A stretch of DNA of 64,000 bases from a virus. A model generated the notes under the pieces. It saw only the letters and a program-made list of their open reading frames with translations. It had not been told where the DNA came from and did no database searches. Positions 8,023 to 38,319 of the stretch are shown one piece after another. Each line of letters begins with the position of its first letter. Positions within the stretch are counted from its first letter, which is position 1. The DNA lies in the IMG/VR virus record IMGVR_UViG_3300036981_000286, positions 15,594 through 79,593 of that record; one strand, written 5' to 3'. Both the position numbers and the translations under genes were made by a program.

Positions 8023-8040
8023 CACTGAAAGGACTCAGTG
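8023..8040 (+). promoter_or_regulatory. RBS hairpin with ANGGAN hexaloop
   Basis: CACTGA-AAGGAC-TCAGTG, a perfect stem 1 nt before the ATG at 8042. Confidence 0.65.
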
Positions 8041-8974: not shown

Positions 8975-9979
8975 ATGGCAAAAGGTTTAGACGTTGGTAC
9001 ATCGTTCATTGTCCTCGCGAAAGACGGCGCAGAGGGCAACGTGGACTACAAAGACTTTCGCGACGCGTTTTACGCAATTAAGCCGACCACGCCAGTCGCT
9101 ACCAAAATGATTGAAAAGGGGCTTGCCGGCAAAGTATTCGTAAAAGACGAGGACGGTACCTTTATTCTGCTCGGGCAGGACGCAATCGAGAAAGCCGTTG
9201 AGCGCAATGACTCGGCTAAGCGCCCGATGTACCGCGGCGTTGTTAGCCCTAAAGAAAAAGACGCAAAACGCGTATTAGCTTTTATTCTGCAAGAAGTCGT
9301 GGGCAAAGCCGACGAGGCGGACGAAAAGATCGTGTTCTGTATTCCGGCGCAACCCGTGGATCAAGAAGACACAGATTTTGACGTTGGGTACCACGAAGAC
9401 GTCGTTAAGCTTATTTTGTCTGGGGCCGGCTATCTTGCGCGGGCTATTAACGAAGCTGAGGCGCTGTGCTACTCAGAATTTGAAAACGACGATTACACCG
9501 GTATTGGCTTATCCTTCGGCGCCGGTATGGTAAATGTATGCGTAATGCTTAGCGGCGAGCCTACTGTGATGTTTTCGACAACCAAATCCGGCGACTGGGT
9601 TGATCGAATGTCGGCCGTGGCTGTTAACGAGCCTGATAGCGTTGTGCAGGCGGAAAAAGAGCACGGCGTGTTTCAAGTAGGCGAGCCAAACGAAAATCAC
9701 ATTTTGGCTGCTGTGTCGGCGTATTACGACCGACTGATTGACTACACCACAAAGCAACTTGCCGCGGCGCTAACCGGGCACAAGTCACTACCAAAGTTTA
9801 AAGATCCGCTACCTATTGCCGTAGCGGGCGGAACATCAAAAGCTGCAGGTTTTGTTAAATTATTTGCCGAAAAACTGGCTGCAAATGGGTTCCCGCTGGC
9901 CGTTAAAGAAGTTAGGCATGCAGCGGATCCGCTTCACGCAGTTGCCAGAGGCTGTTTGATTGCCGCGAAAATTTTGTAA
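8975..9979 (+). CDS. Actin-fold ATPase (MreB/MamK/FtsA-like)
   Basis: Phosphate-1 GLDVGT, connect-1 INEAEA, phosphate-2 SFGAGMVN, adenosine VAGGTS, connect-2 DPLHAVARG. Confidence 0.85.
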   Translation: MAKGLDVGTSFIVLAKDGAEGNVDYKDFRDAFYAIKPTTPVATKMIEKGLAGKVFVKDEDGTFILLGQDAIEKAVERNDSAKRPMYRGVVSPKEKDAKRVLAFILQEVVGKADEADEKIVFCIPAQPVDQEDTDFDVGYHEDVVKLILSGAGYLARAINEAEALCYSEFENDDYTGIGLSFGAGMVNVCVMLSGEPTVMFSTTKSGDWVDRMSAVAVNEPDSVVQAEKEHGVFQVGEPNENHILAAVSAYYDRLIDYTTKQLAAALTGHKSLPKFKDPLPIAVAGGTSKAAGFVKLFAEKLAANGFPLAVKEVRHAADPLHAVARGCLIAAKIL

Positions 9980-9998
9980 ATTTCTGTTAAACTTAACG

Positions 9999-10218
9999 TG
10001 TTGTAAGTTAGTCGTGGTGGCCGACTGGTTAGGGAAGCAGCTCGTACAACAGGGATGTTTTACGGGCTGACAGGAATCCGTGGTCAGGCTTTGGCCGCGC
10101 TCACGGTTGGTGGAGCAATGAATGCCGCACGAGGTTGAGTTTACGCCTTAGAAAGTCATTGCATGCCTCGTTTCGACGAGGTCCGGGCCTGTGGAGGGGA
10201 TCACAGGAGCTTACAACA
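9999..10218 (+). ncRNA. Candidate 220-nt multibranch RNA, GGA-rich (possible Csr/Rsm-type decoy)
   Basis: An 11-bp closing stem (9999-10009/10208-10218) encloses six hairpins, including GGGA and TTCG loops. A TAAACT -10-like hexamer lies at 9988-9993. Confidence 0.65.
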
Positions 10219-10258
10219 AATACACACACAAATTTTACATAACTTACTAGGTAGCAAC

Positions 10259-10609
10259 GTGTTAGACGAATATTTTCATTCGTTAGCTGTGTTTGCCAGC
10301 GCATTCGGGGTCGCGGCCTTTGCCGGGCTAGCGACATTTTTGCGTTTCGCCCGAAAACTCTCTAAACTGGCGTTAATAAGCGCGATGTTAAACGCCGGGT
10401 TTCTCGGCCTAGCCGTCGCACTTTTGTGGTATCAAAACTACCGAAACGCCGAAAATGTAAGTGGCTTAATTGGGATATGCGTATTAGCGGGTATGGGCGG
10501 ATCAACTGTTACTGACATTTTAATTTCTATCCTGTCTGGCGCTGGAATTAAAGTAATTATTCACCACGAGCGAGATCGCGATGACACACTCCGTAACGAT
10601 GACGCTTGA
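10259..10609 (+). CDS. Putative holin (3 TM, LydA-like)
   Basis: Three hydrophobic segments and a charged C-tail. GTG 10259 is preferred because the track start at 10163 lies inside the RNA structure. Confidence 0.55.
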   Translation: MLDEYFHSLAVFASAFGVAAFAGLATFLRFARKLSKLALISAMLNAGFLGLAVALLWYQNYRNAENVSGLIGICVLAGMGGSTVTDILISILSGAGIKVIIHHERDRDDTLRNDDA

Positions 10610-10763
10610 TCAGCGCTGCCGGCTTAGCCTTGTAGCGTGGTTTTTAGCCGCTGTTTGTGCGCTTGGTTTGTTGTTTGCCGCCAGCGCCGCCGTTAGTAGC
10701 CAATCCCAAGACATCCAAACACACGATTTTAATTACAGCAGCCATAACAATACAGCTGCGTAA
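10581..10763 (+). CDS. Small single-TM protein
   Basis: 60-aa ORF overlapping the holin end, with a hydrophobic core. Confidence 0.45.
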   Translation: MTHSVTMTLDQRCRLSLVAWFLAAVCALGLLFAASAAVSSQSQDIQTHDFNYSSHNNTAA

Positions 10764-10766
10764 TTT

Positions 10767-10838
10767 TGCCCGATGGCGCAACGGTAGCGCGGAGCACTGT
10801 TAATGCTTAGGTTCTAGGTTCGAATCCTAGTCGGGCAG
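10767..10838 (+). tRNA. tRNA-Asn (anticodon GTT)
   Basis: Acceptor stem TGCCCGA/TCGGGCA, anticodon arm GAGCA-CTGTTAA-TGCTT, GGTTCGAATCC T-arm. Confidence 0.95.
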
Positions 10839-10843
10839 CTGGA

Positions 10844-12778
10844 GTGAGTATGGATGGCATATCTTTTTTACAGCCGCTATCTCCTGAACTGCAGGAAGTT
10901 TTCTACGCGCGCGGACACGCACACGGCTGTGTAGCGCTTAATTGCAAAACTGCTGCTACAAACTATCATCTTGCCGGCCGCCTGTACCTGTCTAAAAGCG
11001 GCTGGCTGCTGCTGTCAGTGCCGAACGCTTTCGTGCGGGGTCTGTTTTCGGCGTTAACCGCGCCCGGCGCTGAGCTCCCGATCGCAGGCCTCATGAACGT
11101 CACCGGGGTGGCTGAAGACGCGTTAAATGCGCATATCTCGGTGCTCACGGCCGATGAGGTGGCGGCTATCGGCGCGGACAAGATTAATGAACGCGGGCAA
11201 ATGTTCAACTACGGGCTCGGGCCTGTAAAGGAAATACCGGTTAGCAACGTAGACGGTATTAGCCGCGTCTGGGCTGTGCAAGTTGTTAGCCCCGCGCTGA
11301 CCGCGCTCCGCAAAAGTTACGGGCTAACGCCGCTCCCGCACGGCGACCACGCATTTCATATCACGATTGCTTGCCGCCGTAGACGCGTTCTTGGCAATAA
11401 TGCCGTAAGTAAATTTGACGCTGCGTCTGGCCGCGGCGAGCTGAAGGCCGCATCTGACGATAAAACAACTTACGACTGCTGTTGTTCTGGTGCGTGCACC
11501 TGCCCCGCGACATGTGTTTGTAAAAAGTTTGGTTGTTGCAGTGTGCGCAAGACTGCAGCGCACGAAGGCGCGCCGTGGGATACGCCGGCCGACAAGTTAC
11601 CGTGGCGCGAACGCGTAGAGGTGTACGCGCACGACCCTAAAGGCCGCATTTACGGCGGAATTTGGAATACAGACAAATCTTTTGCTGTTCCGGGGGGCGG
11701 TATAGACCCCGGTGAAGATCCCGGGCAAGCGGCGATTCGCGAGCTTGAAGAAGAGACCGGCATAAAAGCGACAAATCCGCGTGTATTGCCGGTAGCTCCG
11801 GTAGACAATGCGTGGAGCGAAAAACATCGCCAAGAAAAACAGCGCAATTTTGCGGGGTCTCGCACTCATTTCGTCGCGGTGGACATTCTTAATAAGTTGC
11901 AACGAAAAAATCTTGATAAGTGGGACGCAGCCCAGCGCAAGATGTATGACCCGTCCGCAGCAGCGGAAATGATGGCAGGCCACAAAAACTTTATGGCGCC
12001 AAGTGTCGCCGCCGGCCGACTCGCGGCCTTGCGGCATATTATTGCTAACGCCGCTAAAAAGACAGCCGCCGATTTACTTCTAGGCGGAGCAGCAGACAAC
12101 AAACCAGATTCAGATTTTCCGGCAGATAAACTCCAAGAGGGCACAGAACATGAGCGAGAACATACCGACAATGATCAAATCGCCAAAGAAATTGCCAAGG
12201 ATCATCTGCAAACAGAACCCGCCTACTACACGCACAAAGAACAAAAAGAAGCGGTAAATAAAATACCCGCAATCATCTTGCAGCTACGTGCCGCCAAAGA
12301 ACATTCTGACGCTAAACGATACGATCAAAAGAATGCTATCTTACGTGAATTAATGCTTAAGGCGCCGAACGAGTGGTATGTCGACGACCCGCTGCCGCAT
12401 CACATGGGCGTCACGCATGACCCCACTAAATTCAAGTTCCACGCCGACCCGACTATTATCCCGCCTGACGTAAAGGTGCGGGCAAAAGCAGCTGAAGCTG
12501 AGCCGTATTTAGCGCAACTTAAAGCTACGCCGGTCGCTTACAGCAAAGACGAATCGGTATGGCGAAATTTCGTAAAGCATTTAATGACCGTAAAAAATAG
12601 AGGCGACAATCAGCTGCATATGCAGGCAAATACTGAAAGCTGGCGCAAAACACTAGACCCGGCTTACCGGCATCAGCAAAATATGGCATTAGCTCGCGGT
12701 GAGGCTCCTAAACAGCCCGGCTTCGCGACGCAGATGATTAACCGTCACGGAGGCAACGTACTCGCTGCGTTGTCATAA
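10844..12778 (+). CDS. Multidomain polyprotein: 2H phosphoesterase, Cys-rich peptide, Nudix hydrolase, DUF5661-like domain
   Basis: AHISV and FHITI (2H); CCCSGACTCPATCVCKKFGCC; complete Nudix box GGIDPGEDPGQAAIRELEEETGI; EGTEHEREHTDNDQIAKEIAKDHL. Start is 10844 (GTG) or 10850 (ATG). Confidence 0.8.
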   Translation: MSMDGISFLQPLSPELQEVFYARGHAHGCVALNCKTAATNYHLAGRLYLSKSGWLLLSVPNAFVRGLFSALTAPGAELPIAGLMNVTGVAEDALNAHISVLTADEVAAIGADKINERGQMFNYGLGPVKEIPVSNVDGISRVWAVQVVSPALTALRKSYGLTPLPHGDHAFHITIACRRRRVLGNNAVSKFDAASGRGELKAASDDKTTYDCCCSGACTCPATCVCKKFGCCSVRKTAAHEGAPWDTPADKLPWRERVEVYAHDPKGRIYGGIWNTDKSFAVPGGGIDPGEDPGQAAIRELEEETGIKATNPRVLPVAPVDNAWSEKHRQEKQRNFAGSRTHFVAVDILNKLQRKNLDKWDAAQRKMYDPSAAAEMMAGHKNFMAPSVAAGRLAALRHIIANAAKKTAADLLLGGAADNKPDSDFPADKLQEGTEHEREHTDNDQIAKEIAKDHLQTEPAYYTHKEQKEAVNKIPAIILQLRAAKEHSDAKRYDQKNAILRELMLKAPNEWYVDDPLPHHMGVTHDPTKFKFHADPTIIPPDVKVRAKAAEAEPYLAQLKATPVAYSKDESVWRNFVKHLMTVKNRGDNQLHMQANTESWRKTLDPAYRHQQNMALARGEAPKQPGFATQMINRHGGNVLAALS

Positions 12779-14977: not shown

Positions 14978-15001
14978 ATAACACTTGCAAGGAAGCAAAT
15001 C

Positions 15002-15817
15002 ATGGCAAAATCAAAATCAGAACAAAAAAACGTTTTATCAGCAACAGAGATACTCAAGCGGCTGCAGAAGCTTGGTTACTTCGGTAGCCAGTCGTGGGCG
15101 CAGATTAAAAAAATTAGCGGCAAGTCATTAGAAGCCGTTGTTCGCGAGTATCAGAATTTTCACGGTCTTGAGCCGACCGGCATTGTGGGCCCGCGTACGG
15201 CGCACGTCATGGCCCGCCACCGCTGTGGTTTGCCGGACTTTAATATCACGAGCAAAGATAGCGTGTGTAAATGGCCGCATAAAAACATTACGTATCACTC
15301 TAAATTAGTGCTGCCCGGCATTACTGATGTGCAGGCTACGTTGGCGTTTGACGCGGCTATTATGCAGTGGGCTAATGTGTGCGCCATCGAGCCCGTGCGT
15401 GTAGACGACGTTAATCAGGCAAACATTTACGCGCGGTCTGGGAAAGGCCGCGGCGTGAACCTAGACGACCGCGGCGGCACACTCGCGTGGAGCGAGCTGC
15501 CGTGCGGTGTTACGCCAAACATGCAACTTGACCAGATGTACGACGAGGCGGAGGAGTGGACTTTTGACATGGCAGTAGCCGTTACCTGCCACGAACTTGG
15601 ACACGCGCTTGGTTTAGCGCACCTCGGCCGCGGTAACTTAATGGCGCCCTACTACGACCCAACTGTCACCAAGCCGCAAAAAGGCGACATCGACGAGATG
15701 GTAAAACTTTACGGCAAAGTCAGTAAAAACACACAAAAAAAGAACAAGGGCGTTGTAGACGTTAGCGGCACAATTTTAATTAATGGAAAACCATATCGGC
15801 TTGTGCCACAGTTCTGA
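15002..15817 (+). CDS. Matrixin (M10 zinc metalloprotease) with a PG-binding-like prodomain
   Basis: HELGHALGLAH, Met-turn LMAPYY, cysteine switch HRCGLPD, YQNFHGLEPTGIVG. Confidence 0.9.
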   Translation: MAKSKSEQKNVLSATEILKRLQKLGYFGSQSWAQIKKISGKSLEAVVREYQNFHGLEPTGIVGPRTAHVMARHRCGLPDFNITSKDSVCKWPHKNITYHSKLVLPGITDVQATLAFDAAIMQWANVCAIEPVRVDDVNQANIYARSGKGRGVNLDDRGGTLAWSELPCGVTPNMQLDQMYDEAEEWTFDMAVAVTCHELGHALGLAHLGRGNLMAPYYDPTVTKPQKGDIDEMVKLYGKVSKNTQKKNKGVVDVSGTILINGKPYRLVPQF

Positions 15818-15852
15818 TAAAATACTCGTATCTCAATAAACGGAGCGTTACT

Positions 15853-20784: not shown

Positions 20785-23700
20785 ATGCCACTTCCCGAAC
20801 AGTCAAACTCGATCCTAGGACCGCAGACCCGAGAATTCGGCGACGTTAACGCGTTACGTCAAAATATCTTTCAGCAATCGCAGCAGTCTGCAATTGGCGT
20901 AGCGCCGTTCGAGCCCGTTTTTACTCGAGAAGATATTTTTAATACTGCGGCTACTCAAGCCCGCGGTATTAAACCGGTCCAGAATGATCTGTATACGCTC
21001 AGCCTCGGCGATGTGGGTTACGAAGGCCCCGAGCGGTTTACAAAAAAAGATCACAAGCAAGCTGTGCTTTCTCACGGCTCCCTCGCGCGAAAGCTGCGCG
21101 GTACGTGGAACCTGACTGACAATAAAACGGGAACTGTTATCGCTCAGAAGCGGTCAACGTTGGCTAACGTGCCGTACATGACCGACGCTGGTACGTTTGT
21201 GCATAACGGCGTGGAATATACGCTGGCCCATCAGATGCGACTTCGCCCGGGCGTATACACCCGCGAAAAAGACAACGGCGAACTTGAAGCGCATGTAAAT
21301 GTGCTCCCCGGAAAAGGTCGAATGCACCGATATTATCTTGACCCCAAAACGGGTGTATTCAAGATCAATATCGGACAGGCGCAAATTCCGCTTATGCCGC
21401 TGCTCAAAGCGCTCGGCACTTCGGAGCAAGATATTCGCAAGGCGTGGGGCAACGAGCTTACCGCCGTGAATATGGAAAAGGGCGACGCCGGCACGCTAGA
21501 CAAGCTGTACAGCCGGCTTGTCTACAAAGCCATACCCGGAATTGACGCCCCGGGAAAACAAAAAGCCATCGCCGACGAGTTTTTAAAAATGGAGATGGAT
21601 CCCGAGGTGACAAAGCGCACGCTTGGCGAGCCTATCAAAAATTTAACGCCTGACGCCATTCTCAAGATCACGAAGAAGCTGATTGCCGTAAACCGGAAAG
21701 AGACCGAATCAGACGACCGCGACAGCATGGCTTTTCAACAAGTTCTTGGCCCTGAAGATTTAATTGCTGAGCGCTTCTCAAAAGATAGGGCCATGCTGCG
21801 GCAATTGCTATGGAAAGCCACGGCAAAGAAAACACTCGATCATGTACCGACTGGTGCGTTTAACAAAGCGATCGTGGCTGCGCTTATTGGTAGCGGTCTC
21901 GGGTCTAGTCTTGAGGAAATCAACCCGGCGGAAATTTACGACCACCAAACGCGGGTTACCAGATTAGGCGAGGGTGGCATTGGCTCGCTTGACGCCGTGC
22001 CGCAAGAATCGCGCAGCGTGCAGCCGAGTCACTTCGGGTTTGTAGATTATCTCCGCACGCCGGAGTCTGGAAAAGTCGGCGTGGACATGCGGTTCGCCCG
22101 CGGAGCAGTAAAAGGCTCTGACGGCAAGGTCTACATGAAAGTAAAGAATCTGAAGACAGGCGAGCTTGAGTACAAGTCGCCGCAGGACATTGCTGATATG
22201 CCTCTCGTGTTCCCGGGTGAGGATAAAAGCGACCTCCCGACCGTGGCCGCAATTGTTAACGGCAAGATGAAATACATTCCGCGCGATCAGGCGCAGTACA
22301 TGGCTCCAAATATGGATGCGTCATTCTCGACGTTGTCTAACATGGTGCCGCTTAAATCCATGATGAAGGGGCATCGCGTTATCATGGGTTCGCGCATGTT
22401 TACGCAGGCGCTGCCCCTTGTTGGCGCTGAATCGCCGTTTATTCAATCAGCCATTGCCGACGACCCTTCGCGCTCGTACGAAGACGATATGGGCAAGAGC
22501 ATGGGCGCCGCATACGCCGACGAGCTTTCGCAAGTTGTATCTGTTACGCCAGACGAGATTGTTTTACGCAATAAAGACGGCGAGCAAAAAACAGTTGAGC
22601 TTTACAATGACGCGCCGTTTAACCGAAAAACTTTCTGGACACAAACAGCAGCGGTAAAACCCGGCGACACAGTTAAACCCGGCCAGCTTATTGCTCAGTC
22701 AAACTTTACAGACAAGAACGGCACCGCAGCGCTTGGTTTAAATATGCGCGTGGGTTACTTACCGTTTCGAGGGCTTGTGTACGACGACTCAGTGGTGATA
22801 TCTGAGTCGGCAGCAAAGCGCCTGACATCTGAGCACATGTATCAGCACGAAGCCGAATCGGACGACAACACGCACATAGACAAGAAGAAATTTATTAGCT
22901 TGTTCCCGAGTGAGTACGACAAAAAAACTTTAGATAACTTTGACGATAATGGCGTAATTAAAAAAGGCGCTGTTGTCACGTACGGCGACCCGCTTATTCT
23001 CGTGAGCAAAGCGCGAGAAACCACATACGGACAAGTGTTTCGCGGCAAGTCGGCTAACTTCACCAATGACTCTGTTACTTGGGAGCACCACTCGCCGGGC
23101 GTTGTTACAGACATCGCTAAAACAAAACACGGCTACAGCGCAATTGTTAAAAGCAAAGCCCAAATGGAGGTAGGCGACAAACTTACCGGGCGATTCGGTG
23201 ACAAGGGTGTCGTGGCTGGGATTATCGCTGACGATCAAATGCCGCAGGATGCGCAAGGCCGCCCAATGGAGGTGCTTGTCAGCCCGCTTGGTTTAGCCAG
23301 CCGAATTAATCCGTCGCAGATCGTAGAGGCAGCGCTCGGTAAAGTAGCTGAGAAAACTGGGCAGCCGTTCAAAATTAAAGATTTTGACGACCAGACCGAC
23401 CTTATCGATTTTGCTAAAGCAGAATTACGAAAACACCAACTCACAGATCTTGAGGATGTTACTGATCCCGAGACTGGGCGCAAAATTAAAGGCGTGCTTA
23501 CTGGTAATCGTTTTTTCATGAAACTGCACCACACGAGCGAAAGCAAAGCGCAGGGCCGGTCTACTGGCGGATACACGGCTGAGGGCGCGCCAGCCAAGGG
23601 CGGGTCCGAAGGCGCTAAGCGCGTCGGCATGCTCGATCTGGGCGCTTTGCTCTCGCACGGCGCCGGTCAGGTTATTCGTGACGCCAAAATGGTTCGCGGG

Positions 23701-25233
23701 CAAGCTAATCCGGAATACTGGTCGCAGGTAATGGCGGGCTATACGCCGCCGCTTCCAAAGATTCCGCAAGTTTACACAAAATTCGTTGAGCAGCTTCGGG
23801 GCGCAGGCATTAACACCGTGCGCGAAGGCACAAAGACGCACATCATGGCGTTGACCGACAAAGAAATTGACAAACTCACCGGCGACCGCGAAATACAAAA
23901 CGCCGATACGGTTGATTGGAAATCTGGCTTGCGGCCTAAAACTGGTGGGCTTTTTGACGAAAGTCTGACCGGTGGCCATAACGGTAATCGCTGGGCTAAG
24001 GTCACCCTGCACGAGCCCATGCCGAATCCGGTTATGGAAGAGCCAATTAGGCGCACTCTTGGGCTTACTGAAAAAAAGTTCAGAGATATCTTAGCCGGCC
24101 AAGAGAAGCTTAACGACGAAACCGGTCCAATGGCTATTAAGAACGCGCTAAAGCGTATTAATGTGCCTAAAGCTATAGAGCAGGCGCGTCAAGATATTCA
24201 GTCCGGACGCAAGGTCGCCCGGGATGCTGCCGTCCGCCGATTAGCCTTTTTAAAAACCTCAGAAAAAACTGGCACACACCCCGAAGAGTGGATGTTGACC
24301 AAGATGCCGGTAATACCGCCAGCGTTTCGGCCCGTCTCGACGATGGGGCAGAAAAAACTACCGCTCGTTGCCGACGCAAATTATTTGTACAAAGAATTGC
24401 TCGACGCAAACTCTGTATTAAAAGATTCTGCTGGCGTACTTACCGACGTGGGCAACGAACGGCTAGGGCTGTACGACGCAATGAAGGGCGTGACTGGCAT
24501 GGGCGACCCTGTGCAGGCCAAGAACGTCGAGCGGCGTGTGCGCGGCTTTTTATCTCAGATTTTTGGAAGCTCGCCAAAGTACGGCACTGTGCAACGCAAA
24601 CTTCTCAGCTCAACTGTGGATCTTGTTGGTCGCGCTGTAATTACACCTAATCCGGATTTGGATATGGATCAGGTCGCCCTCCCCGAAGAAAAAGCGTGGG
24701 AAATTTATAAGCCGTTTATTGTGCGCGGGCTGGTTCGTCGTGGGTTACCGCGCATGGAAGCAATTAAGTCGTTTGACGACAAAAACAATATGGCTCGCGG
24801 TGAATTAAACCAGCAAATGAGTTCTCGGCCAATTATTATTAATCGCGCTCCGGTACTGCACCGTTACGGCATAATGGCGTTTTATCCGCGCCTTACTAAA
24901 AATAAAACAATGGAAGTGAGCCCGCTCGTAACCAAGGGTTTCGGCGCTGACTTCGACGGCGACGCCATGCAATTCCATGTGCCGAGCACTGACGCCGCGG
25001 GCCGAGAAGCCGCTGAAAAAATGCTGCCAAGTCGTAATTTATTTGCGGCGTCAACGTTTAAGGGTCATTACACCCCAGTAGCGGAATTACAGTCTGGCCT
25101 GTATGTTGCTTCCAACCGGATTAACAAGAAGTCGCCCACGCGGGTCTTTAAATCCGCTAAAGATGCTATTGCCGCTTATCGGCGTGGCGATATTGAGGTC
25201 GACACGCCGGTGCATATTGTGGAGAATGATTAA
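20785..25233 (+). CDS. rpoBC: Phage multisubunit RNA polymerase: beta subunit fused to the N-terminal half of beta-prime
   Basis: Beta motifs: GTFVHNG, RLGEGG...HFGFVDYLRTPES, YDDSVVISE, GDKLTGRFGDKG, MKLHH. Beta-prime motifs: GGLFD, PVIPPAFRP, GRAVI, NRAPVLHR and the catalytic ADFDGD. Confidence 0.95.
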   Translation: MPLPEQSNSILGPQTREFGDVNALRQNIFQQSQQSAIGVAPFEPVFTREDIFNTAATQARGIKPVQNDLYTLSLGDVGYEGPERFTKKDHKQAVLSHGSLARKLRGTWNLTDNKTGTVIAQKRSTLANVPYMTDAGTFVHNGVEYTLAHQMRLRPGVYTREKDNGELEAHVNVLPGKGRMHRYYLDPKTGVFKINIGQAQIPLMPLLKALGTSEQDIRKAWGNELTAVNMEKGDAGTLDKLYSRLVYKAIPGIDAPGKQKAIADEFLKMEMDPEVTKRTLGEPIKNLTPDAILKITKKLIAVNRKETESDDRDSMAFQQVLGPEDLIAERFSKDRAMLRQLLWKATAKKTLDHVPTGAFNKAIVAALIGSGLGSSLEEINPAEIYDHQTRVTRLGEGGIGSLDAVPQESRSVQPSHFGFVDYLRTPESGKVGVDMRFARGAVKGSDGKVYMKVKNLKTGELEYKSPQDIADMPLVFPGEDKSDLPTVAAIVNGKMKYIPRDQAQYMAPNMDASFSTLSNMVPLKSMMKGHRVIMGSRMFTQALPLVGAESPFIQSAIADDPSRSYEDDMGKSMGAAYADELSQVVSVTPDEIVLRNKDGEQKTVELYNDAPFNRKTFWTQTAAVKPGDTVKPGQLIAQSNFTDKNGTAALGLNMRVGYLPFRGLVYDDSVVISESAAKRLTSEHMYQHEAESDDNTHIDKKKFISLFPSEYDKKTLDNFDDNGVIKKGAVVTYGDPLILVSKARETTYGQVFRGKSANFTNDSVTWEHHSPGVVTDIAKTKHGYSAIVKSKAQMEVGDKLTGRFGDKGVVAGIIADDQMPQDAQGRPMEVLVSPLGLASRINPSQIVEAALGKVAEKTGQPFKIKDFDDQTDLIDFAKAELRKHQLTDLEDVTDPETGRKIKGVLTGNRFFMKLHHTSESKAQGRSTGGYTAEGAPAKGGSEGAKRVGMLDLGALLSHGAGQVIRDAKMVRGQANPEYWSQVMAGYTPPLPKIPQVYTKFVEQLRGAGINTVREGTKTHIMALTDKEIDKLTGDREIQNADTVDWKSGLRPKTGGLFDESLTGGHNGNRWAKVTLHEPMPNPVMEEPIRRTLGLTEKKFRDILAGQEKLNDETGPMAIKNALKRINVPKAIEQARQDIQSGRKVARDAAVRRLAFLKTSEKTGTHPEEWMLTKMPVIPPAFRPVSTMGQKKLPLVADANYLYKELLDANSVLKDSAGVLTDVGNERLGLYDAMKGVTGMGDPVQAKNVERRVRGFLSQIFGSSPKYGTVQRKLLSSTVDLVGRAVITPNPDLDMDQVALPEEKAWEIYKPFIVRGLVRRGLPRMEAIKSFDDKNNMARGELNQQMSSRPIIINRAPVLHRYGIMAFYPRLTKNKTMEVSPLVTKGFGADFDGDAMQFHVPSTDAAGREAAEKMLPSRNLFAASTFKGHYTPVAELQSGLYVASNRINKKSPTRVFKSAKDAIAAYRRGDIEVDTPVHIVEND

Positions 25234-28151: not shown

Positions 28152-28167
28152 GCCGCATGGAGGTGGC
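28152..28167 (+). promoter_or_regulatory. RBS hairpin with ANGGAN hexaloop
   Basis: GCCGC-ATGGAG-GTGGC before the in-frame GTG at 28169. Confidence 0.55.
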
Positions 28168-37703: not shown

Positions 37704-37721
37704 TAAGACACGGAGGTCTTA
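37704..37721 (+). promoter_or_regulatory. RBS hairpin with ANGGAN hexaloop
   Basis: TAAGAC-ACGGAG-GTCTTA, perfect stem. Confidence 0.65.
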
Positions 37722-38303: not shown

Positions 38304-38319
38304 GGAACACGGAGGTTCC
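38304..38319 (+). promoter_or_regulatory. RBS hairpin with ANGGAN hexaloop
   Basis: GGAAC-ACGGAG-GTTCC before the capsid ATG at 38324. Confidence 0.65.

Follow-up and report, generated by a model that had tools for sequence, protein, structure and literature searches.

On sequence evidence, the window (the whole stretch of 64,000 nucleotides analysed here) encodes a real, intricately folded RNA of ~220 nt, which is a member of an uncatalogued RNA family. The RNA is always found ahead of a putative holin-like membrane gene, and a CsrA gene is present in all relatives tested; together these suggest that it is probably a CsrA-binding control RNA. In the preferred reading, which is tentatively given a probability of roughly 0.35, the RNA would serve at the head of the holin-like gene transcript as a docking and control element to which the CsrA of the phage itself binds. 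Whatever the role of CsrA, this is a well-supported new pseudoknotted RNA family for the catalogues, and it may help in understanding how the timing of a lysis-type gene is set in large uncultured phages.

The parent IMG/VR viral record of the window is 79.6 kb in length and is judged 39% complete. Sequencing runs that contain the stretch carry the source-type labels sediment, runoff, freshwater and aquaculture. The RNA is situated in a gene-free gap between an actin-like gene and a small open reading frame, the membrane gene (Table 1). The actin-like protein is matched over its full length by the archaeal Volactin family, and its relatives in the phage database are found in only two huge uncultured phages, with 34% identity. 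A second gene-free region of ~350 nt lies upstream in the same record, outside of the window (G000:C1:3164-3540, L155). Rfam gives no match to it, and to the eye it is not rich in GGA.

Table 1. Features of the RNA, its surroundings and candidate CsrA target sites in the window, with helix strands as first named
Feature	Position	Strand	Strands first named, with start positions	Remarks
Actin-like gene, 334 aa	8975-9979			Upstream of the RNA gap; Pfam Volactin, E = 2e-63
Extended -10-type box TGTTAAACT	9985-9993	+		5 nt before the conserved RNA block
Structured RNA, full covariance-model match	9999-10218	+		R1, 253.8 bits; conservation in relatives bounded by these bases
P1, closing helix	10000-10008 (5′ strand) with 10209-10217	+	TGTTGTAAGTT 9999 with AGCTTACAACA 10208	8/9 pairs compensatory; 99.8% of cells paired
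P2, hairpin	10009-10027 (10009-10014 with 10022-10027)	+	AGTCG 10010 with CGACT 10022	4/6 pairs compensatory; loop is a pseudoknot strand
J2/3, GGUUAGG, invariant single-stranded junction	10028-10034	+		GGUUAG in 54/54
P3, variable-sequence stem	10038-10069	+	CAGCTCGTA 10038 with TACGGGCTG 10061	6/6 lower pairs compensatory
P3 apex	C10050-G10057 closing hexaloop AGGGAU 10051-10056	+
P4, inner GGUCAG invariant	10078-10106 (10078-10082 with 10102-10106)	+	CCGTG 10078 with CACGG 10102	98.7% of cells paired; 4 compensatory pairs
J4/5, purine-rich junction GG(A/U)GG(A), Shine-Dalgarno-like	10107-10114	+		Four G positions in 54/54
P5	10115-10121 with 10156-10162 (within 10115-10162)	+	GCAATGA 10115 with TCATTGC 10156	100% paired; 5/7 pairs compensatory
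P5b, enclosed by P5	10131-10135 with 10145-10149	+		100% paired; 4/5 pairs compensatory
P6, hairpin with UUCG loop	10165-10182	+	CCTCGT-TTCG-ACGAGG 10166	7/7 pairs compensatory; sequence free, structure kept
P7, hairpin with invariant loop AGGGGAU(C)	10188-10207	+	CCTGTG 10188 with CACAGG 10202	GGGGAUC in 54/54; 4/7 pairs compensatory
Spacer to the next gene	10219-10258	+		Ribosome-binding site UAGGUAG; no GGA, no terminator
Membrane protein, 116 aa, three TM segments and charged tail (holin-like)	10259-10609	+		From translation; small open reading frame downstream of the RNA, start codon GTG at 10259
tRNA-Asn	10767-10839			~550 nt downstream of the RNA
ANGGAN hexaloops at ribosome-binding sites	65-70, 2987-2992, 8029-8034, 14989-14994, 28157-28162, 37710-37715, 38309-38314			Stems of unrelated sequence

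The RNA consists of seven helices, P1 to P7, arranged around one junction that is closed by P1. The initial annotation had named all seven, as a closing helix and six hairpins, and every one is present where it was placed. Folding of the + strand of the RNA region gives the described multibranch structure with −84 kcal/mol, which is more stable than that of shuffled sequences (z = −2.4, with none of 200 shuffles equal to it). The extent originally assigned, 9988-10218, is correct at its end but not at its start. The conserved block begins at 9999 and the first 11 bases consist of a promoter-like box and a spacer.

Covariation in homologues had been named as a check of the fold, and compensatory changes are found to keep all seven helices. 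The alignment contains 54 distinct sequences with a mean pairwise identity of 65% and a lowest identity of 50%. Standard pairs occupy 98.9% of the alignment cells and 46 of the 64 pairs show compensatory changes on both sides; none of 500 shuffles reaches any of the measures, and controls with slid partners display only 35-45% pairing. There are 61 invariant columns, many of them in junctions (GGUUAG, GGUCAG and AGGGGAUC). The + strand is taken as the folding strand because invariant G-U pairs are present, which would be A-C mismatches on the other strand.

A pseudoknot is added here to this architecture. It joins the P2 loop (GUGGC, 10017-10021) to GCCGC in the internal loop of P5 (10124-10128). 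All 270 of 270 cells are paired, three of the five pairs show compensatory changes (U-A/U-G/C-G; G-C/G-U/A-U; C-G/U-A/U-G), and 0/500 shuffles are as good, with slid controls at 20-68% paired. With the first 16 sequences the pairing was not significant (70/500 shuffles); it became so once all 54 were used. A blind search for further tertiary helices proved too noisy in the G/U-rich alignment. A pairing resembling P4 of RNase P (GAAAGUC with GGCUUAC) was rejected, as its 3′ strand covaries with the 5′ strand of P1 and not with the invariant AAGUC. A leader peptide starting from an internal AUG was also rejected, its frame being broken by 1-nt indels in relatives.

A search of positions 9850-10350 against Rfam 15 showed no match even at E ≤ 10, and nine diverse family members gave none at E ≤ 1. 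In the whole window, the only RNAs reported by Rfam 15 and ARAGORN are tRNA-Ser and tRNA-Asn, both away from the RNA, and none of the models for known ribozymes, RNase P, tmRNA, SRP, 6S, group I/II introns or riboswitches matches it. Likenesses to tRNA/Y-RNA, SRP domain IV, cobalamin and T-box elements and group II domain 5 were considered and find no Rfam support. The first reading of the sequence, that this is no tRNA, tmRNA, RNase P, SRP RNA or intron, is thus borne out by the Rfam 15 models and by ARAGORN, which reports nothing at the RNA. The new structured RNA class which it offered as one option is supported by the absence of an Rfam match (E ≤ 10) together with the strong covariation. 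A catalogue of phage RNA candidates (PMC10690425) gives lengths of 29-151 nt, and fragments of the ~220-nt RNA may be among these candidates.

Members of the family were found by several routes. Eighteen IMG/VR loci reached through the actin protein all contain the element, with 75-99% identity and with conservation bounded by the closing helix. Pattern scans yielded further viral and metagenome members; one extra locus from a scan with the 5′-half pattern, L041, was rejected as coding sequence and a chance match. Alignment of the downstream protein led to 80 viral loci, and R1 matches 80/80 of these, on the same strand as the gene and just before its start. The RNA is present as one copy per complete genome. 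Its carriers form a clade of ~200-kb uncultured phages from freshwater, runoff and sediment samples, and all family members come from this one clade. A blastn search against 50,697 phage records gave no match, and the RNA model finds none in Salmonella phage Arash, Vibrio phage D69 or the two huge phages with related actin genes. A pattern scan of 185,579 prokaryote genomes returned four candidates, with ~7 expected by chance (estimate). The model confirmed none of the four, and the RNA is therefore not seen in these genomes at this stringency.

The membrane protein downstream of the RNA has relatives in more than 230 protein clusters, with 65-98% identity, on contigs of up to ~205 kb. Searches of Pfam and PHROG give no family for it, and a language-model search places it beside holin clusters with a score of 0.90. 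The protein shape and this lead suggest, weakly, that it is holin-like. In the 80 loci the RNA ends 11-63 nt before the gene and no insertion is found between the two; in 51 homologues the spacer measures 21-63 nt, which leaves no room for another promoter. Two loci display breaks in the upstream gene order: the actin gene is missing from L054, and in L025 it is followed by an insertion of 1.8 kb. In both, the RNA is still found ~28 nt before the membrane gene, and thus the RNA travels with the membrane gene and not with the actin gene. A terminator-like site was not found between RNA and gene in the window, and in many members no Shine-Dalgarno sequence is visible before the gene. A 60 aa open reading frame with one hydrophobic segment (10581-10763) overlaps the end of the holin-like gene and is conserved in some relatives. 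It may be a second component of a lysis cassette.

The -10-like TAAACT reported initially is present at 9988, within the extended box of Table 1. Boxes of the form TGnTAnnnT are found within 60 nt upstream in 39 of the 54 homologues, compared with 2.8% of random 60-mers from the window, and in 30 of those 39 the box ends 5-8 nt before model position 1. Others, read by eye, show TGTATAAT or TGTAAAAT. The box often stands directly after a terminator-like hairpin. The box at 9985-9993 is the predicted promoter in actual use. A TGnTAAAMT box is found at just one other place in the 64-kb window, 15815-15823, at the end of one open reading frame and 30 nt before the next. A subclade (L135, L128, L122, L127, L123, L134, L109 and L112, with L117 by eye) has the box ~26-27 nt further upstream. 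The subclade also shows, by eye, an extra small hairpin before P1, and several of its members carry GGA motifs over the start codon of the membrane gene.

P1 is lengthened outward by at least five covarying pairs in 30 of the 54 members, filling the space between box and P1. Extensions range from 5 to 17 pairs (examples are L055, L108, L064, L101 and L126), and in two members an extension of 16-17 pairs overlaps the box. A run of U after the extended P1 is present in 11 of the 54 members (estimated chance rate ~4%) and absent in the window. Transcription from sigma-70 promoters usually starts 6-8 nt after the -10 box. With such a start the P1 extension falls outside of the transcript, which implies either a longer, processed precursor or an unusual start. 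The extended P1 may thus reflect a longer precursor, processed for example by RNase III, or an unusual start site.

The initial annotation had also drawn attention to seven GGA triplets. The count is right, but it is not a signal: shuffled sequences have a mean of 5.5 (P = 0.30), the median of family members is 6, and there is no enrichment of GGA over the G-rich composition. Only three GGA sites are conserved family-wide, in the P3 loop (53/54), in the P7 loop (54/54) and in J4/5, where a GGA is found within 3 columns in 49/54 homologues. The CsrA-consensus loop that had been pointed out, ACAGGGATGT at 10049-10058, is found there, and 53-54 of the 54 homologues keep it unchanged except at N. 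The P3 apex reads R-C-A-(G/U)-G-G-A-U-G-Y, with N alone varying: 42 members have GGGA in the loop and 12 have UGGA. This is the binding consensus of CsrA/RsmE, (A/U)CANGGANG(U/A). The C-G pair that closes the apex never covaries, while all other pairs of P3 do, and this points to sequence-specific recognition.

A Pfam CsrA domain is found above threshold in all ten of the RNA-bearing phage records tested, nine of which are 96-100% complete and one of which is a 120-kb contig with 98% identity to the window. The phage CsrA of 73 aa aligns end to end with E. coli CsrA. CsrA-family genes in the related ~200-kb genomes encode 67-109 aa (L144:1432-1653 on the − strand; L140-L150). The csrA gene is tens of kb away from the RNA, ~75 kb in the 120-kb relative. 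In the window's own 79.6-kb record, with its 39% completeness, a CsrA gene was not found. Four phage records have no match to the RNA model; three of them are without CsrA and one, a 595-kb phage, has CsrA.

Candidate CsrA targets are also present in the window. For at least six gene starts (seven are listed in Table 1), an ANGGAN hexaloop on a stem of 4-7 bp holds the ribosome-binding site, and control loop motifs in the same test of the window give 1-4 cases. These ribosome-binding sites look like CsrA target sites. Thus the CsrA interpretation offered initially is retained in part: the invariant consensus loop, CsrA in 10/10 relatives and the ANGGAN sites speak for it, but the features of a sponge fail. 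Literature searches found no RNA partner of a phage-encoded CsrA. A 2025 functional-genomics study, which describes the role of phage CsrA as previously untested, reports that knockdown of a phage csrA homologue reduces plaque size (PMC11879866). Here a conserved RNA with a consensus-type loop occurs together with a phage CsrA, and ribosome-binding sites of the genome resemble CsrA targets, so that a 73-aa protein and a 220-nt transcript would be enough for a test.

As a docking and control RNA for CsrA, the RNA would form the head of the holin-like membrane-gene transcript. The first binding site for CsrA would be the invariant C-A-N-G-G-A-U-G hexaloop hairpin of P3, and the P7 loop or the J4/5 purine tract would offer the CsrA dimer its second site. 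Binding would set the amount of downstream membrane protein made, and expression of this protein would follow the level of free CsrA during infection. We infer both that CsrA binds the RNA and that binding alters downstream expression.

The comparison with CsrA-regulated leaders is close in several respects. Like those of B. subtilis hag, E. coli glgC and ColE7 cel, the RNA lies in the putative 5′ leader of one gene and carries a consensus-fitting GGA of the high-affinity type in a hairpin loop; in the ten related phage genomes a csrA gene belongs to the same genetic system. CsrA represses the ColE7 lysis gene cel via a hairpin-loop site in its leader (PMC2896534), and the candidate regulated gene here is likewise of putative lysis type. 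The differences are that the known leaders form one or two simple hairpins, in contrast to the 220-nt pseudoknotted seven-helix fold, and that the CsrA here is phage-encoded. A further difference is in the placing of the GGA. In the usual CsrA mechanism a GGA site lies over the Shine-Dalgarno sequence or the start codon. A GGA in the last 25 nt before the membrane-gene start codon, or overlapping it, is found in only 10 of 51 homologues and not in the window, and the classical mechanism, with CsrA on the Shine-Dalgarno sequence, is not conserved in the family. It is for this reason that the CsrA leader is held only at the probability given above and that the alternatives below retain some weight.

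Other findings also argue against the CsrA leader. Two or three GGA sites leave the 61 invariant columns and the pseudoknotted seven-helix fold unexplained, and so ornate a fold suggests an additional or a different function. CsrA is present in one huge phage that is without this RNA. The link of RNA and CsrA is not independently replicated, since it comes from one clade only, and a conserved gene order could by itself account for the adjacency of RNA and membrane gene.

The initial annotation had offered, as its other option, a decoy resembling CsrB/RsmZ that would release hairpin-gated late genes. In this form the proposal is given up: in addition to the missing GGA enrichment and the ~three conserved GGA sites, there is no homology to Csr/Rsm RNAs, no terminator follows the RNA in the window, and the RNA is fixed to the downstream gene. 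A broader version, in which a discrete stable RNA acts in trans and soaks up phage or host CsrA to free the ANGGAN-gated ribosome-binding sites, is unlikely but deserves some weight. In its favor, a -10-type box belongs to the RNA itself, in many cases directly behind a terminator-like hairpin, and a 3′ end or an RNase III site could be set by the extended P1 (30/54) or the later U-run (11/54). A long life is expected from the compact fold, and candidate CsrA targets are present elsewhere in the genome. Since most copies of the downstream gene have no GGA at their start, the conserved site may be there for something else. As in CsrB, CsrC and RsmX/Y/Z, GGA is found in hairpin loops and junctions next to a promoter-like box of the RNA's own, and titration of CsrA is possible. 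Csr/Rsm sponge RNAs, however, carry 5-22 GGA sites, and this RNA has about three conserved ones in 220 nt with a total not above chance. It also differs from the sponges in its strong conservation outside of the GGA sites, its closing helix and pseudoknot, its lack of a terminator in the window and its lack of an Rfam match or homology to CsrB, CsrC or RsmX/Y/Z. The single copy per genome, and the fact that RNA and membrane gene are never separated by an insertion in 80 loci, argue against a decoy as well.

A leader that works independently of a protein is on a level with the trans-acting decoy, and equally improbable as it stands. The fold would sense a small molecule or ion, as in a riboswitch, or recruit ribosomes, and the GGA loops would be tertiary contacts. 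As expected of a riboswitch, an aptamer-like conserved fold stands in the leader of the same gene throughout; the fixed 5′ position before one gene family, the invariant junctions and the pseudoknot are reminiscent of large aptamers. In many members no Shine-Dalgarno sequence can be seen before the gene, while J4/5 keeps a GGAGG-like tract, and a subset has the U-run after P1. Against this, no conserved alternative pairing or expression platform was seen in the flanks, and no ligand is hinted at by the downstream gene. With GGGA or UGGA, the P3 loop is not a constant GNRA contact; the UGGA of 12/54 members also led to the rejection of a GNRA tetraloop at this position. Further, this reading leaves the phage CsrA gene unused. 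The leader of E. coli moaA combines a Moco riboswitch aptamer with CsrA sites. The phage RNA is similar to it as a large leader with a complex fold and CsrA-type sites together, and is unlike it in phage context and in having no sequence or model similarity (nothing in Rfam).

Somewhat less probable again is a stable RNA with another job, a ribonucleoprotein RNA or a ribozyme, cut from a longer transcript at the extended P1, with the membrane gene adjacent by mere gene order. Size, pseudoknot and the 61 invariant columns would fit, as would the tRNA gene 550 nt downstream, and the P1 extension would imply a longer precursor if transcription starts 6-8 nt past the box. On the other side, no known ribozyme, RNase P, tmRNA, SRP or intron model is matched, and beyond the membrane gene and CsrA no conserved partner gene was identified. 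GOLLD, ROOL, raiA and OLE RNAs share with this RNA an intricate covarying fold, an occurrence in phages or environmental samples, and tRNA genes nearby. The phage RNA differs in being much smaller (220 nt), in giving no model match and in its position strictly upstream of one gene. Finally, a DNA-level element or a chance structure in place of a functional RNA is extremely improbable, given compensatory changes in every helix, G-U pairs that are invariant although they read as A-C mismatches on the other strand, and conservation that ends exactly at the helix ends.

An extension of the docking and control reading, more speculative and doubtful as a whole, is a complete phage Csr circuit. It would consist of the phage CsrA, late-gene ribosome-binding sites gated by ANGGAN loops, and the RNA reading or titrating free CsrA. 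The holin-like gene, and hence lysis, would then be timed by the amount of late mRNA accumulated, and the tertiary fold would be a rigid clamp, holding out two or three GGA loops to a single CsrA dimer.

Two further genes of the window are of note. The 644 aa protein directly after tRNA-Asn (10844-12778) consists of a 2H phosphoesterase joined to a NUDIX domain, and also shows a sub-threshold match to DUF5661 (25.9 bits vs a cut-off of 27). The fused RNA-polymerase gene at 20785-25233 (1482 aa) has 32% identity over 97% of its length to gp206 of Salmonella phage Arash and to genes of Vibrio phages D69, D181 and D148; these are the nearest cultured relatives found.
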